Of a stretch of DNA of 59,167 nt, positions 2,336 through 12,609 are shown in pieces. Position numbers and translations under genes: made by a program. This DNA comes from Armatimonadota bacterium. GTDB lineage: Bacteria > Armatimonadota > DTGP01 > JAHWJO01. Where the stretch lies: assembly GCA_038240635.1 (NCBI GenBank), contig JBBRGS010000001.1, positions 1 through 59,167 on the forward strand. The letters run 5' to 3'. Under the pieces are notes generated by a model. The model worked only from the letters and a program-made list of their open reading frames with translations. It did not search any database and was not told the origin of the DNA. The stretch's first letter is position 1. Every line of letters begins with the position of its first letter.

Positions 2336-5857
<3,522 letters not shown>

Positions 5858-5868
5858 GAGGCGTTCGT

Positions 5869-6132
5869 ATGTCCCTGCAGCAAAAGACTCTGACCTCAGA
5901 AGAAGCGGCCCGCCTGGGTGATGAACTCTATGAGCGGAAGGTGCTGCCGTCGGTGACAGACGAGCAACACGGTCTGGTCGCCGCGATTGACCTCTCCTCC
6001 GGGGAATTTGCGCTGGCGGAGACAGCCCTCGAAGCGTCAGAACAGTTGCGCGCACGCTTCCCCGGGACGGACGTTTGGTTCGTGAGAGTCGGCCAACACG
6101 CTCTGCATCGGATCGGGGCCGCAGAATGTTGA
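5869..6132 (+). CDS. Small DUF5678-like protein (87 aa), partner of the downstream aspartic protease
   Basis: In-frame ATG at 5869 within ORF 5701..6132. The AGGAG RBS overlaps the metH stop codon (TAGGAG). Sequence ...HGLVAAIDLSSGEFALAETALEASEQLRARFPGTDVWFVRVG resembles DUF5678-type small proteins. Overlaps the next gene by 7 nt (ATGTTGA). Confidence 0.6.
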   Translation: MSLQQKTLTSEEAARLGDELYERKVLPSVTDEQHGLVAAIDLSSGEFALAETALEASEQLRARFPGTDVWFVRVGQHALHRIGAAEC

Positions 6133-6482
6133 AAGGTTCTGTCAACGCCTTTCGTGAGGCGACACTTCAGGTGAACCTCCGAGGCGTGAACGATCTAACC
6201 GTGGAGTTGGTGGTGGATACAGGATTTACCGGCTACCTCACGCTGACCTCAGATCAGATCGTCGCTCTTGGCTGCTCACGAATTGGCCGAAGTCGCGTCA
6301 TGTTGGCCGACGGCAGCGAAGAGATATTCACCCTTTTTGCGGTTATCGCTAACTGGGATGGCCTGCCGCGGACGGTGGAAGCGTATGAAATGACCTCCCC
6401 TCCCCTACTCGGAATGACTATGATGTACGGCCATCATCTCCACATCCACATTGTTGACGGCGGTGAAGCGCTTCTTACCTGA
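6126..6482 (+). CDS. Retropepsin-like (clan AA) aspartic protease, 118 aa
   Basis: In-frame ATG at 6126 in ORF 6075..6482. Catalytic VVDTGFTGYLTL (D-T-G) motif and a size typical of bacterial single-domain retropepsin-like proteases. Confidence 0.7.
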   Translation: MLKGSVNAFREATLQVNLRGVNDLTVELVVDTGFTGYLTLTSDQIVALGCSRIGRSRVMLADGSEEIFTLFAVIANWDGLPRTVEAYEMTSPPLLGMTMMYGHHLHIHIVDGGEALLT

Positions 6483-6552
6483 CCGTCTTGTCAACTTTGC
6501 GCCTGCCAGAACAGAACAATGTCTTAAAATGCGAAAATGCTCAGGTACGGGA

Positions 6553-6797
6553 GGAACCGGGCTGGGGAGGATGCGCCGACGATCCGGGAGTTGTTTGGGC
6601 AGAAGTATCGCGGCAGCCGGTACAGTTTCGGCTACCCGGCGTGCCCGGACCTGGAGGAGCAGGCGAAGGTGTTCGAGGCGCTGCGCCCGGAGCGGATCGG
6701 GGTGGCCCTCTCCGACGAGTTCATGCTGGAGCCGGAGCAGACGACCAGCGCGATCATCGTTCACCATCCGCAGGCGAAATACTTCACGCTGGATTGA
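6553..6797 (+). pseudogene. Displaced copy 2 of the metH 3' end (last ~80 codons)
   Basis: ORF 6537..6797 reads ...GEDAPTIRELFGQKYRGSRYSFGYPACPDLEEQAKVFEALRPERIGVALSDEFMLEPEQTTSAIIVHHPQAKYFTLD. This is near-identical to metH 5608-5857, with a few mostly synonymous changes and a TGA stop instead of TAG. Confidence 0.9.
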
Positions 6798-6826
6798 GGC
6801 TGACCCGCAGCCGTGTATACTGAAGT

Positions 6827-7300
6827 ATGAGTCCTCGAGTCTACCTGGAAACCACAATTCCCAGCTACCTCGCCGCATGGCCGAGCCGTGACCTCATCAT
6901 TGCCGCCCATCAGCAGATGACGCAGGAATGGTGGAGACATCGTCGTAATGAGTTCGATCTATACGCCTCACAGATCGTTCTCCAGGAGGCCAGTGTGGGA
7001 GACCCGGAGGCCGCGCCTCGGCGACTGAGTTTTCTGAAAAATATACCACTCCTTGAACAGAGTGCGGAAGCCGTGGCGCTGGCAAAAGTGTTGCTCCGGC
7101 AAGCGCCCCTGCCTGAAAAAGCAACCCTGGATGCTCTCCATATCGCCATCGCCGTGGTCAGTGGTATGCACTATCTCATCACCTGGAATTGCGCGCACAT
7201 CGCTAACGCGACTCTGCGCAGTCAAATTGAAACTATTTGCCGTTCGCAAGGCTACGAGCCGCCGGTGATCTGCACTCCTGAAGAACTTATGGAGGGGTAA
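6827..7300 (+). CDS. PIN-domain (VapC-like) protein, 157 aa
   Basis: ORF track. Motifs VYLETTIPSYL, DALHIAIAVV and LITWNCAHIAN match PIN-fold toxin families. Followed after 4 nt by a 67-aa ORF. Confidence 0.65.
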   Translation: MSPRVYLETTIPSYLAAWPSRDLIIAAHQQMTQEWWRHRRNEFDLYASQIVLQEASVGDPEAAPRRLSFLKNIPLLEQSAEAVALAKVLLRQAPLPEKATLDALHIAIAVVSGMHYLITWNCAHIANATLRSQIETICRSQGYEPPVICTPEELMEG

Positions 7301-7304
7301 TCTG

Positions 7305-7508
7305 ATGGGGCGAGACACGATTGTCGAGGAAGTGCGTCAGAATCGTGAAGCGTACGCGGAGCGTTTCAACTTCGACCTTCAGGCCATTCATCTTGACCTG
7401 AAGGAGCAGGAAGAGAAAAGCGGACGCCAGATCGTTTCTCTGCCGCCACGGCGGGTGAAACCAACGGATCTGGATTTAGCGCAGAAACATGAAGAGGAAG
7501 CCGTTTGA
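7305..7508 (+). CDS. Small charged protein (67 aa), putative antitoxin partner of the PIN protein
   Basis: ORF track. Tight spacing behind the PIN gene and a helical, charged composition. No family recognised. Confidence 0.45.
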
Positions 7509-7515
7509 CCTTACT

Positions 7516-7793
7516 CTGGACGGCATGAAGGTGGTCGAGGAGCGGTTCGGGAGCGGGCAGATGCCGCCGCCGTTCATGTTGCGGTCGGCGGAGGTGATGA
7601 AGGCGTCATGACCGGGACCATGATGAGGGAACCGGTGGAGACCTCACGGGGGAAGAGCGGACGAAGGTCTTCAAGGCGCTGCGGCCGGAGCGGATCGGGG
7701 TAGCGCTCTCCGACGAGCGCATGCGGGAGCCGGAGCAGACGACCCGCGCGACCCTTATCCACCATCCGCAGCGACGTACTTCACGCTCGACGG
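7516..7793 (+). pseudogene. Mosaic, internally deleted remnant of the metH 3' half (copy 3)
   Basis: Three collinear blocks match metH: 7516-7607 matches 4376-4468, 7608-7660 matches 4892-4948, and 7661-7793 matches 5723-5857. Frame is not maintained. Confidence 0.8.
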
Positions 7794-7859
7794 ATCGGGT
7801 ATCATGGCTGTTGATCTCGTGCATGCCCTGAGCGGAGAAGCGAAAAAAGGTGGAGACTA

Positions 7860-8231
7860 ATGGACAGGAGCGCCAGGGAGACATCGGGAGTGATCCGATC
7901 CGACCGGGGGCTGATCGTCGCCGGAACCCGGATCACTCTGTACGATGTGCTTGACTATCTCAATGCGGGATGGCCTCCCAAACTCCTCGGAGACCGCCTG
8001 AACCTCACTTCTGAACAGACTCAGGCGGCTCTGGAGTACATCCGCGACCACACGGTGGAACTGGAAACCGAGTACCGACAGGTCCTACACGACGCGGAAG
8101 AGAGCCGTCACTATTGGGAGACCCGTTATCCCGACAGGCGGAACGTGTTGGAGTCTTCGTCGCCATTCGAACGGCGAAAGGCCCTGGAAAAGCGGCTGGC
8201 TGCGCTCGAAAAGGAAACCGTATCGCGGTGA
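7860..8231 (+). CDS. DUF433-family antitoxin-like protein (123 aa)
   Basis: ORF track. ...RGLIVAGTRITLYDVLDYLNAGWPPKLLGDRLNLTSEQTQAALEYI is the DUF433 helix-turn-helix-like core. GTGA overlap with the next gene. Confidence 0.75.
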   Translation: MDRSARETSGVIRSDRGLIVAGTRITLYDVLDYLNAGWPPKLLGDRLNLTSEQTQAALEYIRDHTVELETEYRQVLHDAEESRHYWETRYPDRRNVLESSSPFERRKALEKRLAALEKETVSR

Positions 8232-8623
8232 TCCGTGTTCTGGTGGACCACAATATGGAGGGGCAGGCGCTTCTCCTGTGGGGCGCCCTCGCCGCAGAAG
8301 GATGGCTTGCTCTCCTTCCCGTTCCGCTCCGCTCCTTTGGCGACGTGGGTCTGTCGTTCGACACCAGCGACCGGGAGGTCTGGCGGTTCGCTCAGGAGCG
8401 CGAAATGGTTCTCCTCACCGCAAATCGAAGTCTGAAAGGTGTGGACTCTCTGGAGCGAACCCTGAGGGAAGAAGTGGATTCGGAATCCCTGCCTGTACTC
8501 ACCGTCGGGCAGCCGGAACGTATGGAGGAACGGGAGTATCGCCAGGCGTGTGCGGTCCGTCTGATGGAGATATTCCTGGATTTGGACACGTATCGGGGAG
8601 TGGGCCGTCTCTACCTCCCATGA
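8228..8623 (+). CDS. DUF5615-family (PIN-like/Mut7-C-like) toxin-like protein (131 aa)
   Basis: GTG at 8228 is in frame within ORF 8114..8623. VIRVLVDHNMEG...DREVWRFAQEREMVLLTANR is typical of the DUF5615 partners of DUF433. Confidence 0.65.
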   Translation: MIRVLVDHNMEGQALLLWGALAAEGWLALLPVPLRSFGDVGLSFDTSDREVWRFAQEREMVLLTANRSLKGVDSLERTLREEVDSESLPVLTVGQPERMEEREYRQACAVRLMEIFLDLDTYRGVGRLYLP

Positions 8624-8655
8624 AGGGTCCGCAGTTTCCCCGCCAGGGGATTCCA

Positions 8656-8762
8656 AGCGGATCGGCGTGGCGCTCTCCGTCGAGTTCATGCGAGAGCCGG
8701 AGCCGACGACCCGCGCGACCCTCATCCACCATCCGCAGGCGAAGGACTTCACACTCGACGGA
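8656..8762 (+). pseudogene. Most decayed remnant of the metH 3' end (copy 4)
   Basis: agcggatcggcgtggcgctctccgtcgagttcatgcgagagccggagccgacgacccgcgcgaccctcatccaccatccgcaggcgaaggacttcacactcgacgga aligns with metH ~5750-5857 and shares derived positions with copy 3. Confidence 0.75.
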
Positions 8763-8774
8763 GGGCTGGAGTGG

Positions 8775-8825
8775 AAATTGAAAACAGGCGTCCGGGAGGG
8801 AGTGTATCCCCTGCCCGGACGCCTG
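8775..8825 (-). terminator. Intrinsic terminator downstream of the fasciclin gene
   Basis: Perfect 12-bp stem caggcgtccggg (8785-8796) / cccggacgcctg (8814-8825) with a 17-nt loop. On the minus strand it is followed by TTTTCAATTT. Confidence 0.55.
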
Positions 8826-8851
8826 AATGAACCGTGTGGAAGCGGCTCAGA

Positions 8852-9364
8852 TTACTTCATGTGGGGCATAAGCACGGTGTCCACCACGTGGATGACGCCG
8901 TTGGTCGCCATGATGTCGGCCTTCACGACTTTCGCGTTGCCGACGTATACTTTGCCCTTCTTCACGCGGATCGGCACCGATTGCCCGTTCACCGTCTTCG
9001 CGGAGTGGAGTTTCACCACCTCCGCCGCCGTCACTTTGCCCGGCACCACATGGTAGGTGAGGACCGCCGTCAGCATCGCCTTGTTCGCCAGCAGCGCGTT
9101 CAGTTTCGCTTTCGGGATTTTGGCGAAGGCCGCGTCGGTCGGAGCGAAGACCGTGAACGGCCCTGTCCCCTTGAGCGTATCCACCAGACCGGCGGCCTTC
9201 ACGGCGGTGACGAGGGTTTTGAACTGGCCCGCTCCGACCGCGGTGTCCACGATGTCCTTTTCGGCGGCGCGAGCGGGGAGAATGGCGAAGGCGGTGAGGG
9301 CGACGGCGCCGGCGACCAGGGATCGTCGAAGCAGGTTGGCGCCAGGGGCGGTTGCGGAAGTCAT
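8852..9364 (-). CDS. Secreted fasciclin (FAS1) domain protein, 170 aa
   Basis: Internal ATG (rc of 9362-9364) of ORF 8852..9823, preceded by AAGGAG. Signal peptide, then [13 protein letters not shown] and [11 protein letters not shown], the FAS1 signatures. Confidence 0.85.
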
Positions 9365-11382: not shown

Positions 11383-12609
11383 CTACAGGTTGTGAACCGT
11401 GATCGTGCCCCGCATGGAGACCGGGTCCATCGTGAAGGTTCCGGTGGCGCCGCCATTGGAGTCGGGGGTCGGCTCCATCGTCGCTTTGCTGATGAGGATT
11501 TGGGCGGAGTCGCCGGCCAGCCCCTTGATGGTCACGTCGCCACTCGTCGCAATCCAGAGCCGTTGTGTGGTCGTGCCGCCGGAGACCGTGGCTTCAATGT
11601 AATTAACGATGGCCGAGTTGAGGCTCCCATCGTTGATGTGGAAGGTCTGGCCCACGACCAGGGGGGCGCCGAAGGAGACCAGCGACACCGAGATGGCGCG
11701 GGTGCGGTTGACATTGCCCGGACACTGCGCCCCCACCAGGGTGAGGTCGTAGAGGCCGACGCTGGGTCGGTTGTTCAGGCCACCGGCCACAGTATCGGAG
11801 CTGAAGTAGGAGGTGTCGGCGTTGGTTCCGGCGGGGGAGCCGAAGACCGCTTCCAGGAGACCGCCGCCGCACGCGACAGGAAGCGTGGTGCCGCCGGTCG
11901 TTCCACCTGTGGTGCCGCCGGTCGTTCCGCCTGTAGTGCCGCCTGTGGTTCCACCCGTCGTTCCACCCGTCGTTCCACCCGTCGTGCCGCCTGTGGTTCC
12001 GCCTGTGGTTCCACCCGTCGTGCCGCCTGTGGTTCCACCCGTCGTTCCACCGGTCGTTCCGCCGGTCGTTCCGCCGGTCGTTCCGCCTGTGGTGCCGCCG
12101 GTGACATTGGTAACGCCGGAGGTCAGAGAGCCGGTGTAGGTCTCAGAGCCGTAATGCATCGTGTACGCGCCGCCGCCGGACGCTCCGGGCAGCGTTCCCG
12201 TGATGCTCACCGGAATCTCCGTACCGAGGATGTTGACCGACCCCGACACACTGTAGGCGCCGTTGCTCACGGTGACGCTTCCGGCCAGCGCTCCCACGCC
12301 GAGGGCGACACTTCCCGACTGCTGCGGCCGAGCCGAGAGCGCGCGCGACGCCACGGAGGCCTCGATGGCGTCGGTTCCCGTTACGGTCAGCGTTCCGGCC
12401 ATCTGGTTGCCCAGGGCGTTCAGGTTGAGGATGGCCGTGCGTCCGCCGTTCAGGGAGGCGGAGCCCGTGTAGCGCCCGTTGGTGTTGCGGGAGAGGGTGG
12501 GCGCGGGCACATCATTGCCGCCGCCGCAGCCAGGGAGCAGCGCGACCAATGGAACAGCGCACAGGAGGAGAAGCGATGCCGCCCGAAGTTTCGACCCAAA
12601 ACGTTGCAT
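11383..12609 (-). CDS. Lipoprotein with a central (GGTT)n repeat, 408 aa, function unknown
   Basis: ORF track. Signal peptide plus lipobox LLPGC. About 19 consecutive GGTT tetrapeptides. Flanking Gly/Ser/Thr-rich beta-type sequence. Confidence 0.7.
   Translation of the reverse strand: MQRFGSKLRAASLLLLCAVPLVALLPGCGGGNDVPAPTLSRNTNGRYTGSASLNGGRTAILNLNALGNQMAGTLTVTGTDAIEASVASRALSARPQQSGSVALGVGALAGSVTVSNGAYSVSGSVNILGTEIPVSITGTLPGASGGGAYTMHYGSETYTGSLTSGVTNVTGGTTGGTTGGTTGGTTGGTTGGTTGGTTGGTTGGTTGGTTGGTTGGTTGGTTGGTTGGTTGGTTGGTTGGTTLPVACGGGLLEAVFGSPAGTNADTSYFSSDTVAGGLNNRPSVGLYDLTLVGAQCPGNVNRTRAISVSLVSFGAPLVVGQTFHINDGSLNSAIVNYIEATVSGGTTTQRLWIATSGDVTIKGLAGDSAQILISKATMEPTPDSNGGATGTFTMDPVSMRGTITVHNL
11894..12103 (-). 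repeat. 12-bp coding tandem repeat (about 17-19 units) encoding GGTT
   Basis: The units ggtgccgccggt / cgttccacc(t/c)gt alternate throughout the interval. The VVPP repeat ORF on the plus strand is its antisense image. Confidence 0.9.

Follow-up and report, generated by a model that had tools for sequence, protein, structure and literature searches.

A displaced metH 3' end behind a small gene cassette in an Armatimonadota genome is probably a retired allele

Why does a second, intact end of metH lie behind a complete metH gene, separated from it by a small cassette of two genes, and did that second end ever serve a working gene? The locus is found at the start of a 59,167-nucleotide stretch (contig JBBRGS010000001.1, positions 1 to 59,167 of the forward strand, hereafter the window) of an Armatimonadota MAG (GCA_038240635.1) of 4.1 Mb in 400 contigs. 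A sequence-only reading of the window had proposed that the displaced end was once the functional end of a metH gene, and that each incoming cassette brings, or displaces, a working gene end.

The resident metH gene (2336-5857, plus strand), coding for the cobalamin-dependent methionine synthase, translates as an intact ORF of 1,173 amino acids, and the precomputed annotation places all five MetH Pfam domains in the protein. Its end (copy 1, 5608-5857, plus strand) is in ungapped register with the displaced end from position 5624 onward, and its stop codon TAG (5855-5857) overlaps the Shine-Dalgarno sequence AGGAGG of the first gene of cassette 1, with 11 nt between stop and ATG. Cassette 1 (5869-6482, plus strand) consists of an 87-aa ORF (5869-6132) overlapping a 118-aa retropepsin-like ORF with a D-T-G motif (6126-6482), the latter matching the clan AA aspartic protease family TIGR03698 with an E value of 8.5e-10, under the family cut-off. 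A spacer of 70 nt (6483-6552), AT-richer and without counterpart in G001, a relative of the same family, leads to the displaced end (copy 2, 6553-6797, plus strand), which has 77 intact codons followed by the stop TGA. Behind it, cassette 2 (6827-7508, plus strand) carries a 157-aa ORF (6827-7300) and a 67-aa ORF (7305-7508), neither of which matches any family in Pfam or NCBIfam; the 157-aa product is 29.5% identical to that of the first gene of the cassette behind groEL in the same genome.

Two older metH ends follow. Copy 3 (7516-7797, plus strand) is a decayed tail composed of pieces of metH 4376-4467 and 4886-4939 and then the last ~140 nt of the gene, so that it retains pieces from up to 1.5 kb upstream; it has suffered a 1-nt deletion and its stop has turned into GGA. 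Cassette 3 (7860-8623, plus strand) encodes a DUF433 protein (7860-8231; PF04255 at 1.1e-7) and a DUF5615-like protein (8228-8623; PF18480 at 2.6e-4, below the cut-off). Copy 4 (8656-8762, plus strand), the oldest remnant, has the states CGC, ATC, and GGA in common with copy 3. The array is made of three cassettes of 0.6-0.8 kb and four metH ends, and these are exactly the four copies of the metH end in the genome; matched as repeats of the gene end, they span 5620-5857, 6553-6797, 7651-7790, and 8656-8758. At cassette 1 the repeat is 234-245 nt long, the older copies are shorter (about 140 nt and about 105 nt), and the left boundaries of the copies vary (metH ~5608, ~4376, and ~5750).

Two other repeats of the window are worth recording. 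A PIN_12 gene and a gene for a 157-aa protein are enclosed by two copies (352-556 and 1828-2032, 89% identical) of the 5' part of a minus-strand MscS-like channel gene. Here it is the start of a gene that is repeated, which mirrors the metH arrangement. A run of ~23 units of 12 nt (GGTCGTTCCACC-like) at 11860-12135 would give a Gly/Thr-rich repeat if translated on one strand.

Aligned in the metH frame, copy 1 (5624-5857) and copy 2 (6564-6797) match without gaps at an offset of 940 nt, with 11 substitutions in 234 nt (95.3% identity) that fall in seven codons. To the left of 5624/6564 the match is weak (GGAACTGGGGCTGGGCGGGGAGGAC versus GGAACCGGGCTGGGGAGGAT, with one mismatch and a 5-nt gap in a G-rich run), which places the left repeat boundary of copy 2 between 6553 and 6564. 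The sequence-only reading had counted about a dozen differences and a short indel at the homology boundary, and the alignment bears out both. From copy 1 to copy 2, three codons show single silent changes (GAC>GAT for Asp, ACT>ACC for Thr, and GTC>GTT for Val), a serine codon differs at all three bases with the residue kept (TCG>AGC), and the stop differs at two bases and is still a stop (TAG>TGA), all as the reading had listed them. The two replacements that it had called conservative are both present, Ser to Ala (TCG>GCG) and Leu to Ala (CTG>GCG, two bases). Among 119 MetH homologues the former falls on a variable site (68 Thr, 40 Ala, and 2 Ser), but the conservative nature of the latter is doubtful, its site being Leu in 113 (4 Met, 1 Ile, and 1 Ala). 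Copy 3 has the same Ala, as does one intact MetH, P0029, within an identical FEALRPERIGVALS context. The copy-2 states GAT, the variable-site Ala GCG, ACC, AGC, GTT, and TGA can each be found in intact metH from other lineages, although AGY serines are uncommon at the switched codon (4 of 60 metH genes, versus 47 with TCN).

How much can this pair say by itself? No frameshift or nonsense codon interrupts the 234-nt alignment. The reading had named a random spread of changes over codon positions as its refuting result, and by that yardstick the distribution of the differences over the positions of sense codons (3/2/4) and the dN/dS of 0.47 (Nei-Gojobori, 3.5 silent changes in 53.8 sites and 5.5 replacement changes in 177.2 sites; Fisher p=0.25) are not distinguishable from random. 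The lack of visible third-position bias arises because three codons changed at several positions, and the formal ratio is indecisive because the path from TCG to AGC is counted mostly as non-silent steps. At the protein level the outcome looks less random: nine random substitutions would leave at most two residue changes and no nonsense codon with P=0.0005-0.003, and only one in nine ways of changing two bases of the stop still gives a stop. A more realistic null, in which the resident copy accepts silent changes exclusively and the spare copy evolves neutrally, gives P=0.015-0.05 counted by nucleotides and 0.13-0.24 by changed codons. Judged from its codons, the pair taken alone is suggestive, allele-like but short of decisive.

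The intact frame of copy 2 also raises the idea that it is functional now, either as an expressed 86-aa MetH C-terminal fragment or as a promoter or homology element for cassette 2, which we regard as highly improbable. An in-frame ATG at 6537, accidental in our view, opens an 86-aa ORF through copy 2 (6537-6797), and two promoter-like sites match the consensus, a weak one within the spacer (6503-6530) and a second at 6794-6821 (plus strand, TTGAGG-16 nt-TATACT, a consensus match only), whose first hexamer includes the stop TGA of copy 2 and which ends 6 nt before the ATG of cassette 2. Against a present role, such matches are near chance (two found versus 0.9 expected in the consensus scan), no ribosome-binding site precedes 6537, and decay is clear in copies 3 and 4 and has left a nonsense codon, frameshifts, and lost stops in displaced ends at other loci.

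The older copies allow the changes between copies 1 and 2 to be polarised. Using copies 3 and 4 as outgroup at the 10 sites within 5713-5857 where the two younger ends differ, the outgroup has the copy-2 state at seven, the copy-1 state at one, and neither at two. Shared in this way are GCG at the Leu codon, ACC, and the two final bases of both AGC (present as CGC) and TGA (present as GGA). At most two changes are private to copy 2, both third-position C>T. It is therefore the resident end that is the odd allele, and copy 2 is not its decayed duplicate. Nearly all of the change, with three codons altered at more than one base, would thus fall to the lineage leading to the functional resident end, the reverse of the expectation for a decaying duplicate.

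This bears on the first alternative, an in-situ long target duplication, in which the insertion of cassette 1 copied the recipient's own metH end, copy 1 then changing silently and copy 2 neutrally. It is the usual reading of the "insertion with long target duplication" (ILTD) described for restriction-modification genes (PMC2853133), and the single pair is compatible with it when counted by changed codons. However, with seven of the 10 sites shared with the older copies, most of the change would have to fall on the constrained copy, including a three-base serine switch, a two-base Ala-to-Leu change, and a two-base stop switch. That point mutation under constraint produced them while the free copy changed twice is unlikely; the most economical reading makes copy 1 a different, imported allele. 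A constrained resident end that has changed several times more than the free copy fits the import of copy 1. Together with the genome-wide test below, we consider in-situ duplication unlikely.

Ends do decay once displaced, as indicated by the frameshifts, the nonsense codon, and the lost stops found in copies 3 and 4 and in displaced ends at other loci. Compared with copy 1, copy 3 has 11 replacement and six silent codons, and its internal piece another six and three; taken over copies 3 and 4, the comparison with copy 1 gives 10-11 replacement and six silent codons. In the internal piece (7516-7607 versus 4376-4467) the decay is mostly A/T>G/C (CTG>CGG, CAG>CCG, CTG>CCG, and CAG>CGG), suggesting that mutation or conversion in this genome is biased towards GC.

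The metH locus is not a singular case. A self-comparison of the 4.1-Mb assembly for the layout of gene end, insert, and second gene end located it at 12 further places, in 11 other genes. Located by that comparison were C19:28929-30063, C21:10620-14731, C26:11634-13816, C26:21894-24293, C50:1-1591, C52:3331-4331, C56:2833-4033, C138:561-3143, C146:5514-7785, C200:1141-2876, and C276:170-1412. The affected genes encode a radical-SAM/SPASM protein, a proteasome-type AAA ATPase, LepA (three copies), an AP_endonuc_2 protein, an AAA_2 ATPase, DapB, a PhyH protein, GlmS, GroEL, and two proteins without assigned family. By eye, the inserts include VapBC-like pairs, DUF433/DUF5615, RHH with HNH, a Uma2-like nuclease, a Dam-like methyltransferase, and larger genes. 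Further candidates for the layout are contigs C11, C13, C68, C101, C123, C164, C172, C213, C219, C253, and C292.

We pooled 13 resident/displaced pairs (metH included) that could be aligned ungapped and in frame. Together they contain 120 differences, distributed 26/26/68 over the codon positions (chi-square p=4e-7). Of the changed codons, 59 are silent and 47 are replacements, and the pooled pN/pS is 0.27. In simulations conditioned on the number of differences of each pair (the P values are approximate, given uniform sites and a ts/tv of 2 or 4), neutrality predicted 81-83 replacements and none of 1,500 runs reached the observed 47. In-situ duplication with a fully constrained resident predicted 64-67, again more than seen (P≤0.0007); without metH, none of 1,500 runs reached the observed value, and a conservative subset gave P=0.001-0.006. 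The stop was switched among stop triplets in four pairs and lost in two, and across the genome displaced copies show a nonsense codon, small indels, and lost stops. The proposition that the pattern is unexpected under neutral decay after a local duplication, for which the metH pair by itself gives P values of up to 0.24, gains its support from the pooled test, from the polarisation, and from the array of G001 described below.

A second polarisation, at groEL with a relative whose GroEL is 91% identical, assigned the two non-silent changes to the displaced copy and the majority of the silent changes to the resident; it is compatible with both import and in-situ duplication. The contig of that relative (JGI 3300034807, L144:3209-5883) has extra groEL ends at 4894-5007 (84%) and 5803-5883 (90%), surrounding a WD40 gene and a small two-gene pair, and stacking behind groEL is therefore shared in the lineage. 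At C200:1141-2876 (L133), the duplicated glmS end runs at least 46 nt past the stop into a small gene whose product begins MTITLEPE, and the repeats bracket a Dam-like DNA methyltransferase, called by eye from its DPPY motif. The region of the glmS end is the target of Tn7-like elements in other bacteria.

A replicate of the metH array was found in G001, where one contig (L026) carries the resident metH end and four further metH pieces with small cassettes between them. One of these cassettes (L026 2573-3207) is homologous to cassette 1, with 46 of 87 and 51 of 118 residues identical in the two proteins. The resident end of G001 and its copy c2 differ in nine of 24 codons (13 nt, 18%), eight of them silent and one a replacement, and among the differences are TCG/AGC at the same serine as in the window and TAA/TGA at the stop. 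Resident and c1 differ by six silent and two replacement codons, and c2 and c3 by eight silent and three replacement codons, a second serine also being switched (AGC/TCG) in the latter pair. Divergence with so few replacements between resident and c2 resembles, from the codons, that of two long-separated working alleles, and argues against in-situ duplication.

The comparison with G001 also brings in a second alternative, concerted evolution, according to which the array is old, patchy gene conversion has kept copy 2 similar to the resident end, and the differences are unconverted leftovers of an older allele. The metH ends that follow the retropepsin cassettes of the genome studied here (G000) and of G001 have their left boundaries within about 10 nt of each other, and they resemble the metH of their own genome (96% and about 90%) rather than that of the other (about 75%); copy 2 is moreover intermediate between copy 1 and copies 3 and 4. 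Against it, copy-3-like and copy-1-like sites are interleaved in copy 2, which would require at least three tracts of under about 10 nt, and conversion resets the copies to identity, so that the account reduces to the in-situ model disfavoured by the pooled test. We judge it quite improbable.

G001 matters likewise for the possibility of an assembly artefact, in which the copies are identical within each strain and the assembler worked silent-biased SNPs of co-occurring strains into one of them. In this MAG of 400 contigs, several contigs begin or end inside such repeats (e.g., C50, C11, and C292), and coding SNPs between strains are mostly silent and would mimic the pattern. However, the distance between successive differences of copies 1 and 2 never exceeds 91 nt and they form a chain that reaches unique sequence on either side, the copy-2 states recur in copies 3 and 4 of the same contig, the same pattern appears in G001, an independent MAG, and the extra groEL ends lie on an independent JGI contig. 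An artefact is thus very unlikely.

The left junction of the homologous cassette differs in G001, where a 48-nt spacer with a TATAAT box takes the place of the 11 nt seen here. The different genera therefore do not share a simple module whose junctions are fixed, a point against import. A motif follows the position of the metH-end stop in three different copies, each preceding a different cassette: CGGGTATAAT at L026:1544-1560 and 2524-2540, and CGGGTATCAT at 7797-7812 of the window. It may be a shared -10 box belonging to the repeated unit.

A closer donor allele for the metH end, for which the sequence-only reading had suggested a search among related taxa, was not found. Among JGI metagenome contigs, 403 metH relatives were matched, and the top one of the best 80 was 73% identical; among 5.8 billion proteins none was closer than a MetH with 81% identity over the last 154 residues. 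None of the best 80 of the 403 metagenome metH loci had a second metH end; the end is single-copy in those 80 and in L107, all at most 81% identical. A near-isogenic empty site or a cassette-free relative was not found in the collections searched. In L107 (JGI 3300034802), the closest relative with DNA (MetH 81%), a cassette stands directly after metH with no second metH end detectable. There, an RHH-antitoxin-like gene (MTITLPPETEAKL..., L107:3841-4300) starts 42 nt past the metH stop, and it is homologous to the cassette of G001 at L026 1590-2206. Three short MetH-end ORFs (P0164, P0165, and P0167) were considered as displaced ends and discarded as frameshift-split metH genes in long-read assemblies.

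Nor did we find an enzyme that would account for the insertions. The six genes of the metH cassettes match no transposase, integrase, or other recombinase family in Pfam or NCBIfam, and the genome has four PF00589 genes, none within about 6 kb of a listed array. Among 15 repeat pairs there was no shared junction motif, the right repeat ends being spread between a point just ahead of the stop codon and one at least 46 nt beyond it, and no inverted repeats were found within 5500-8900. Site-specific recombination was rejected for lack of a shared junction motif and of a linked integrase. An integron cassette array was also discarded, there being no integrase nearby and the cassettes being bounded by metH-end copies and not by imperfect inverted repeats of the attC type. 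Intragenomic transposition of a single cassette does not fit either, as the cassette proteins have distant paralogues only (mostly 30-54% identity), with the exception of the Uma2-like gene at C50, which has a 79% paralogue in the genome.

The anatomy of the array, the allele-like differences between its ends, the recurrence of the layout in a relative and at 12 other loci, and the lack of a linked recombinase are established observations. We infer from here recombination as the mechanism, copy 1 rather than copy 2 as the import, and a close relative as the donor. In the explanation that we favour as the probable one, copy 2 is a retired 3'-end allele of metH that was working until cassette 1 arrived within a module imported by recombination. 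Cassette 1 would have come from a close relative as a pre-formed module consisting of the donor metH end, the cassette, and a truncated metH end. Homologous recombination of the host would have inserted it with crossovers inside the metH end, one in a Campbell-type event if the module was a circle, two if it was a linear fragment. This would make the donor-type end (copy 1, linked to cassette 1 by the TAG/AGGAGG overlap) resident, while the old end (copy 2) would be moved downstream and take the left boundary of the module. Copy 2 would keep its native flank, cassette 2 and the older strata, and its decay would have only begun. Earlier rounds of the same process would have left copies 3 and 4, and the array would be a stack of former gene ends with the youngest adjoining metH.

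Given the overlap of TAG with AGGAGG and the position of TGA inside the promoter-like hexamer, each end seems tied to the cassette on its right. This arrangement suggests that copy 2 may itself have arrived with cassette 2 and then served until cassette 1 and copy 1 came. Two further points stand against import, the first creation of a module at a new gene, which still needs an illegitimate step, and the Leu-to-Ala difference at a site that is nearly always Leu. As for the claims we set out from, that copy 2 is a former working end and that incoming cassettes bring or displace working ends, the pattern of the pair alone backs them weakly, but they are supported by the polarisation, by G001, by the 13-pair test, and by the likeness to icd/icdC described below.

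The closest known footprint is the ILTD of restriction-modification gene complexes (Nobusato et al. 2000, Gene 259:99; Furuta, Abe & Kobayashi 2010, PMC2853133), whose repeats often span a gene start or stop and leave the gene intact, by a mechanism that is unsettled (PMC2853133, PMC3874152). Like those insertions, the metH cassettes are small, selfish units without transposase or integrase, flanked by long direct repeats whose length varies over tens to hundreds of bp; those of the metH array all exceed 30 bp. ILTD repeats are single-copy at the empty sites of related genomes; for metH, the loci with a single end are at most 81% identical. The Dam-like methyltransferase recognised by eye at the glmS locus (C200) also resembles ILTD cargo. 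In contrast, the metH array carries no restriction-modification system but a retropepsin-like pair, an unassigned pair, and a DUF433/DUF5615 pair, the cargo is made of toxin-antitoxin-like pairs, and insertions are stacked in the metH array. The repeat copies, moreover, behave as two functional alleles (from the polarisation, G001, and the pooled simulation) and not as one duplicated target, which points to transfer of pre-formed modules by homologous recombination. Compared with the ILTD footprint, the novelty would lie in the toxin-antitoxin-like cargo, in the stacking into arrays, and in the allelic, not duplicated, nature of the repeats.

A clear precedent for the exchange of gene ends is the prophage e14 of E. 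coli K-12, which supplies the last 165 nt of icd and leaves the native end as icdC. Counted in the same manner, icd and icdC differ at 12 of 165 nt, 11 of them at third positions, with nine silent and two replacement codons. As in e14/phage 21 at icd, the incoming and the displaced ends of metH differ mainly silently (11 of 234 nt, four silent codons plus the stop switch, and two replacements). Unlike the metH cassettes, e14 is a 15-kb prophage with an integrase and an excisionase (intE and xisE); the metH cassettes lack a recombinase, their left boundaries vary, and there is no common att-like core. In Rhs, CdiA, and T6SS effector-immunity arrays, new modules replace the 3' end of the main gene by homologous recombination, and older ends stay downstream with their companion genes, as a record of "orphan" tips. 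There, the replaced tip is a variable toxin domain and the point of the exchange, whereas the metH tip is a conserved housekeeping sequence that would act as homology arm only, with the cargo outside the gene.

We tentatively raise the possibility that modules of gene end plus cassette form a distinct class of enzyme-free mobile elements, which would enter relatives through host recombination and leave dated stacks of gene ends. How selfish pairs such as toxin-antitoxin or restriction-modification systems enter a genome without a recombinase of their own has been a puzzle since the ILTD footprint was described. If the repeats are different working alleles, the footprint would be explained by ordinary homologous recombination of pre-formed modules between relatives, and the "long target duplications" known since 2000 would be imported alleles and not duplications. 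If such a class exists, toxin-antitoxin-like cargo would travel with the functional 3' end of a housekeeping gene, and the module would be selected to keep that end working because it becomes the host's own at each transfer. The repeats could then be used as evidence of donor, recipient, and order of arrival, and the ends of essential genes (metH, groEL, glmS, lepA, and dapB) would be silently swapped for foreign alleles with each cassette that arrives.

Distant homologues of the retropepsin-like gene of cassette 1, with 31-42% identity, were found in MAGs of Gammaproteobacteria, Spirochaetia, and Dehalococcoidia, and in four of 16 such loci they are flanked by direct repeats of 43-92 nt (L108:3536-4490, L111:3048-4676, L116:3334-4485, and L122:3468-4359).
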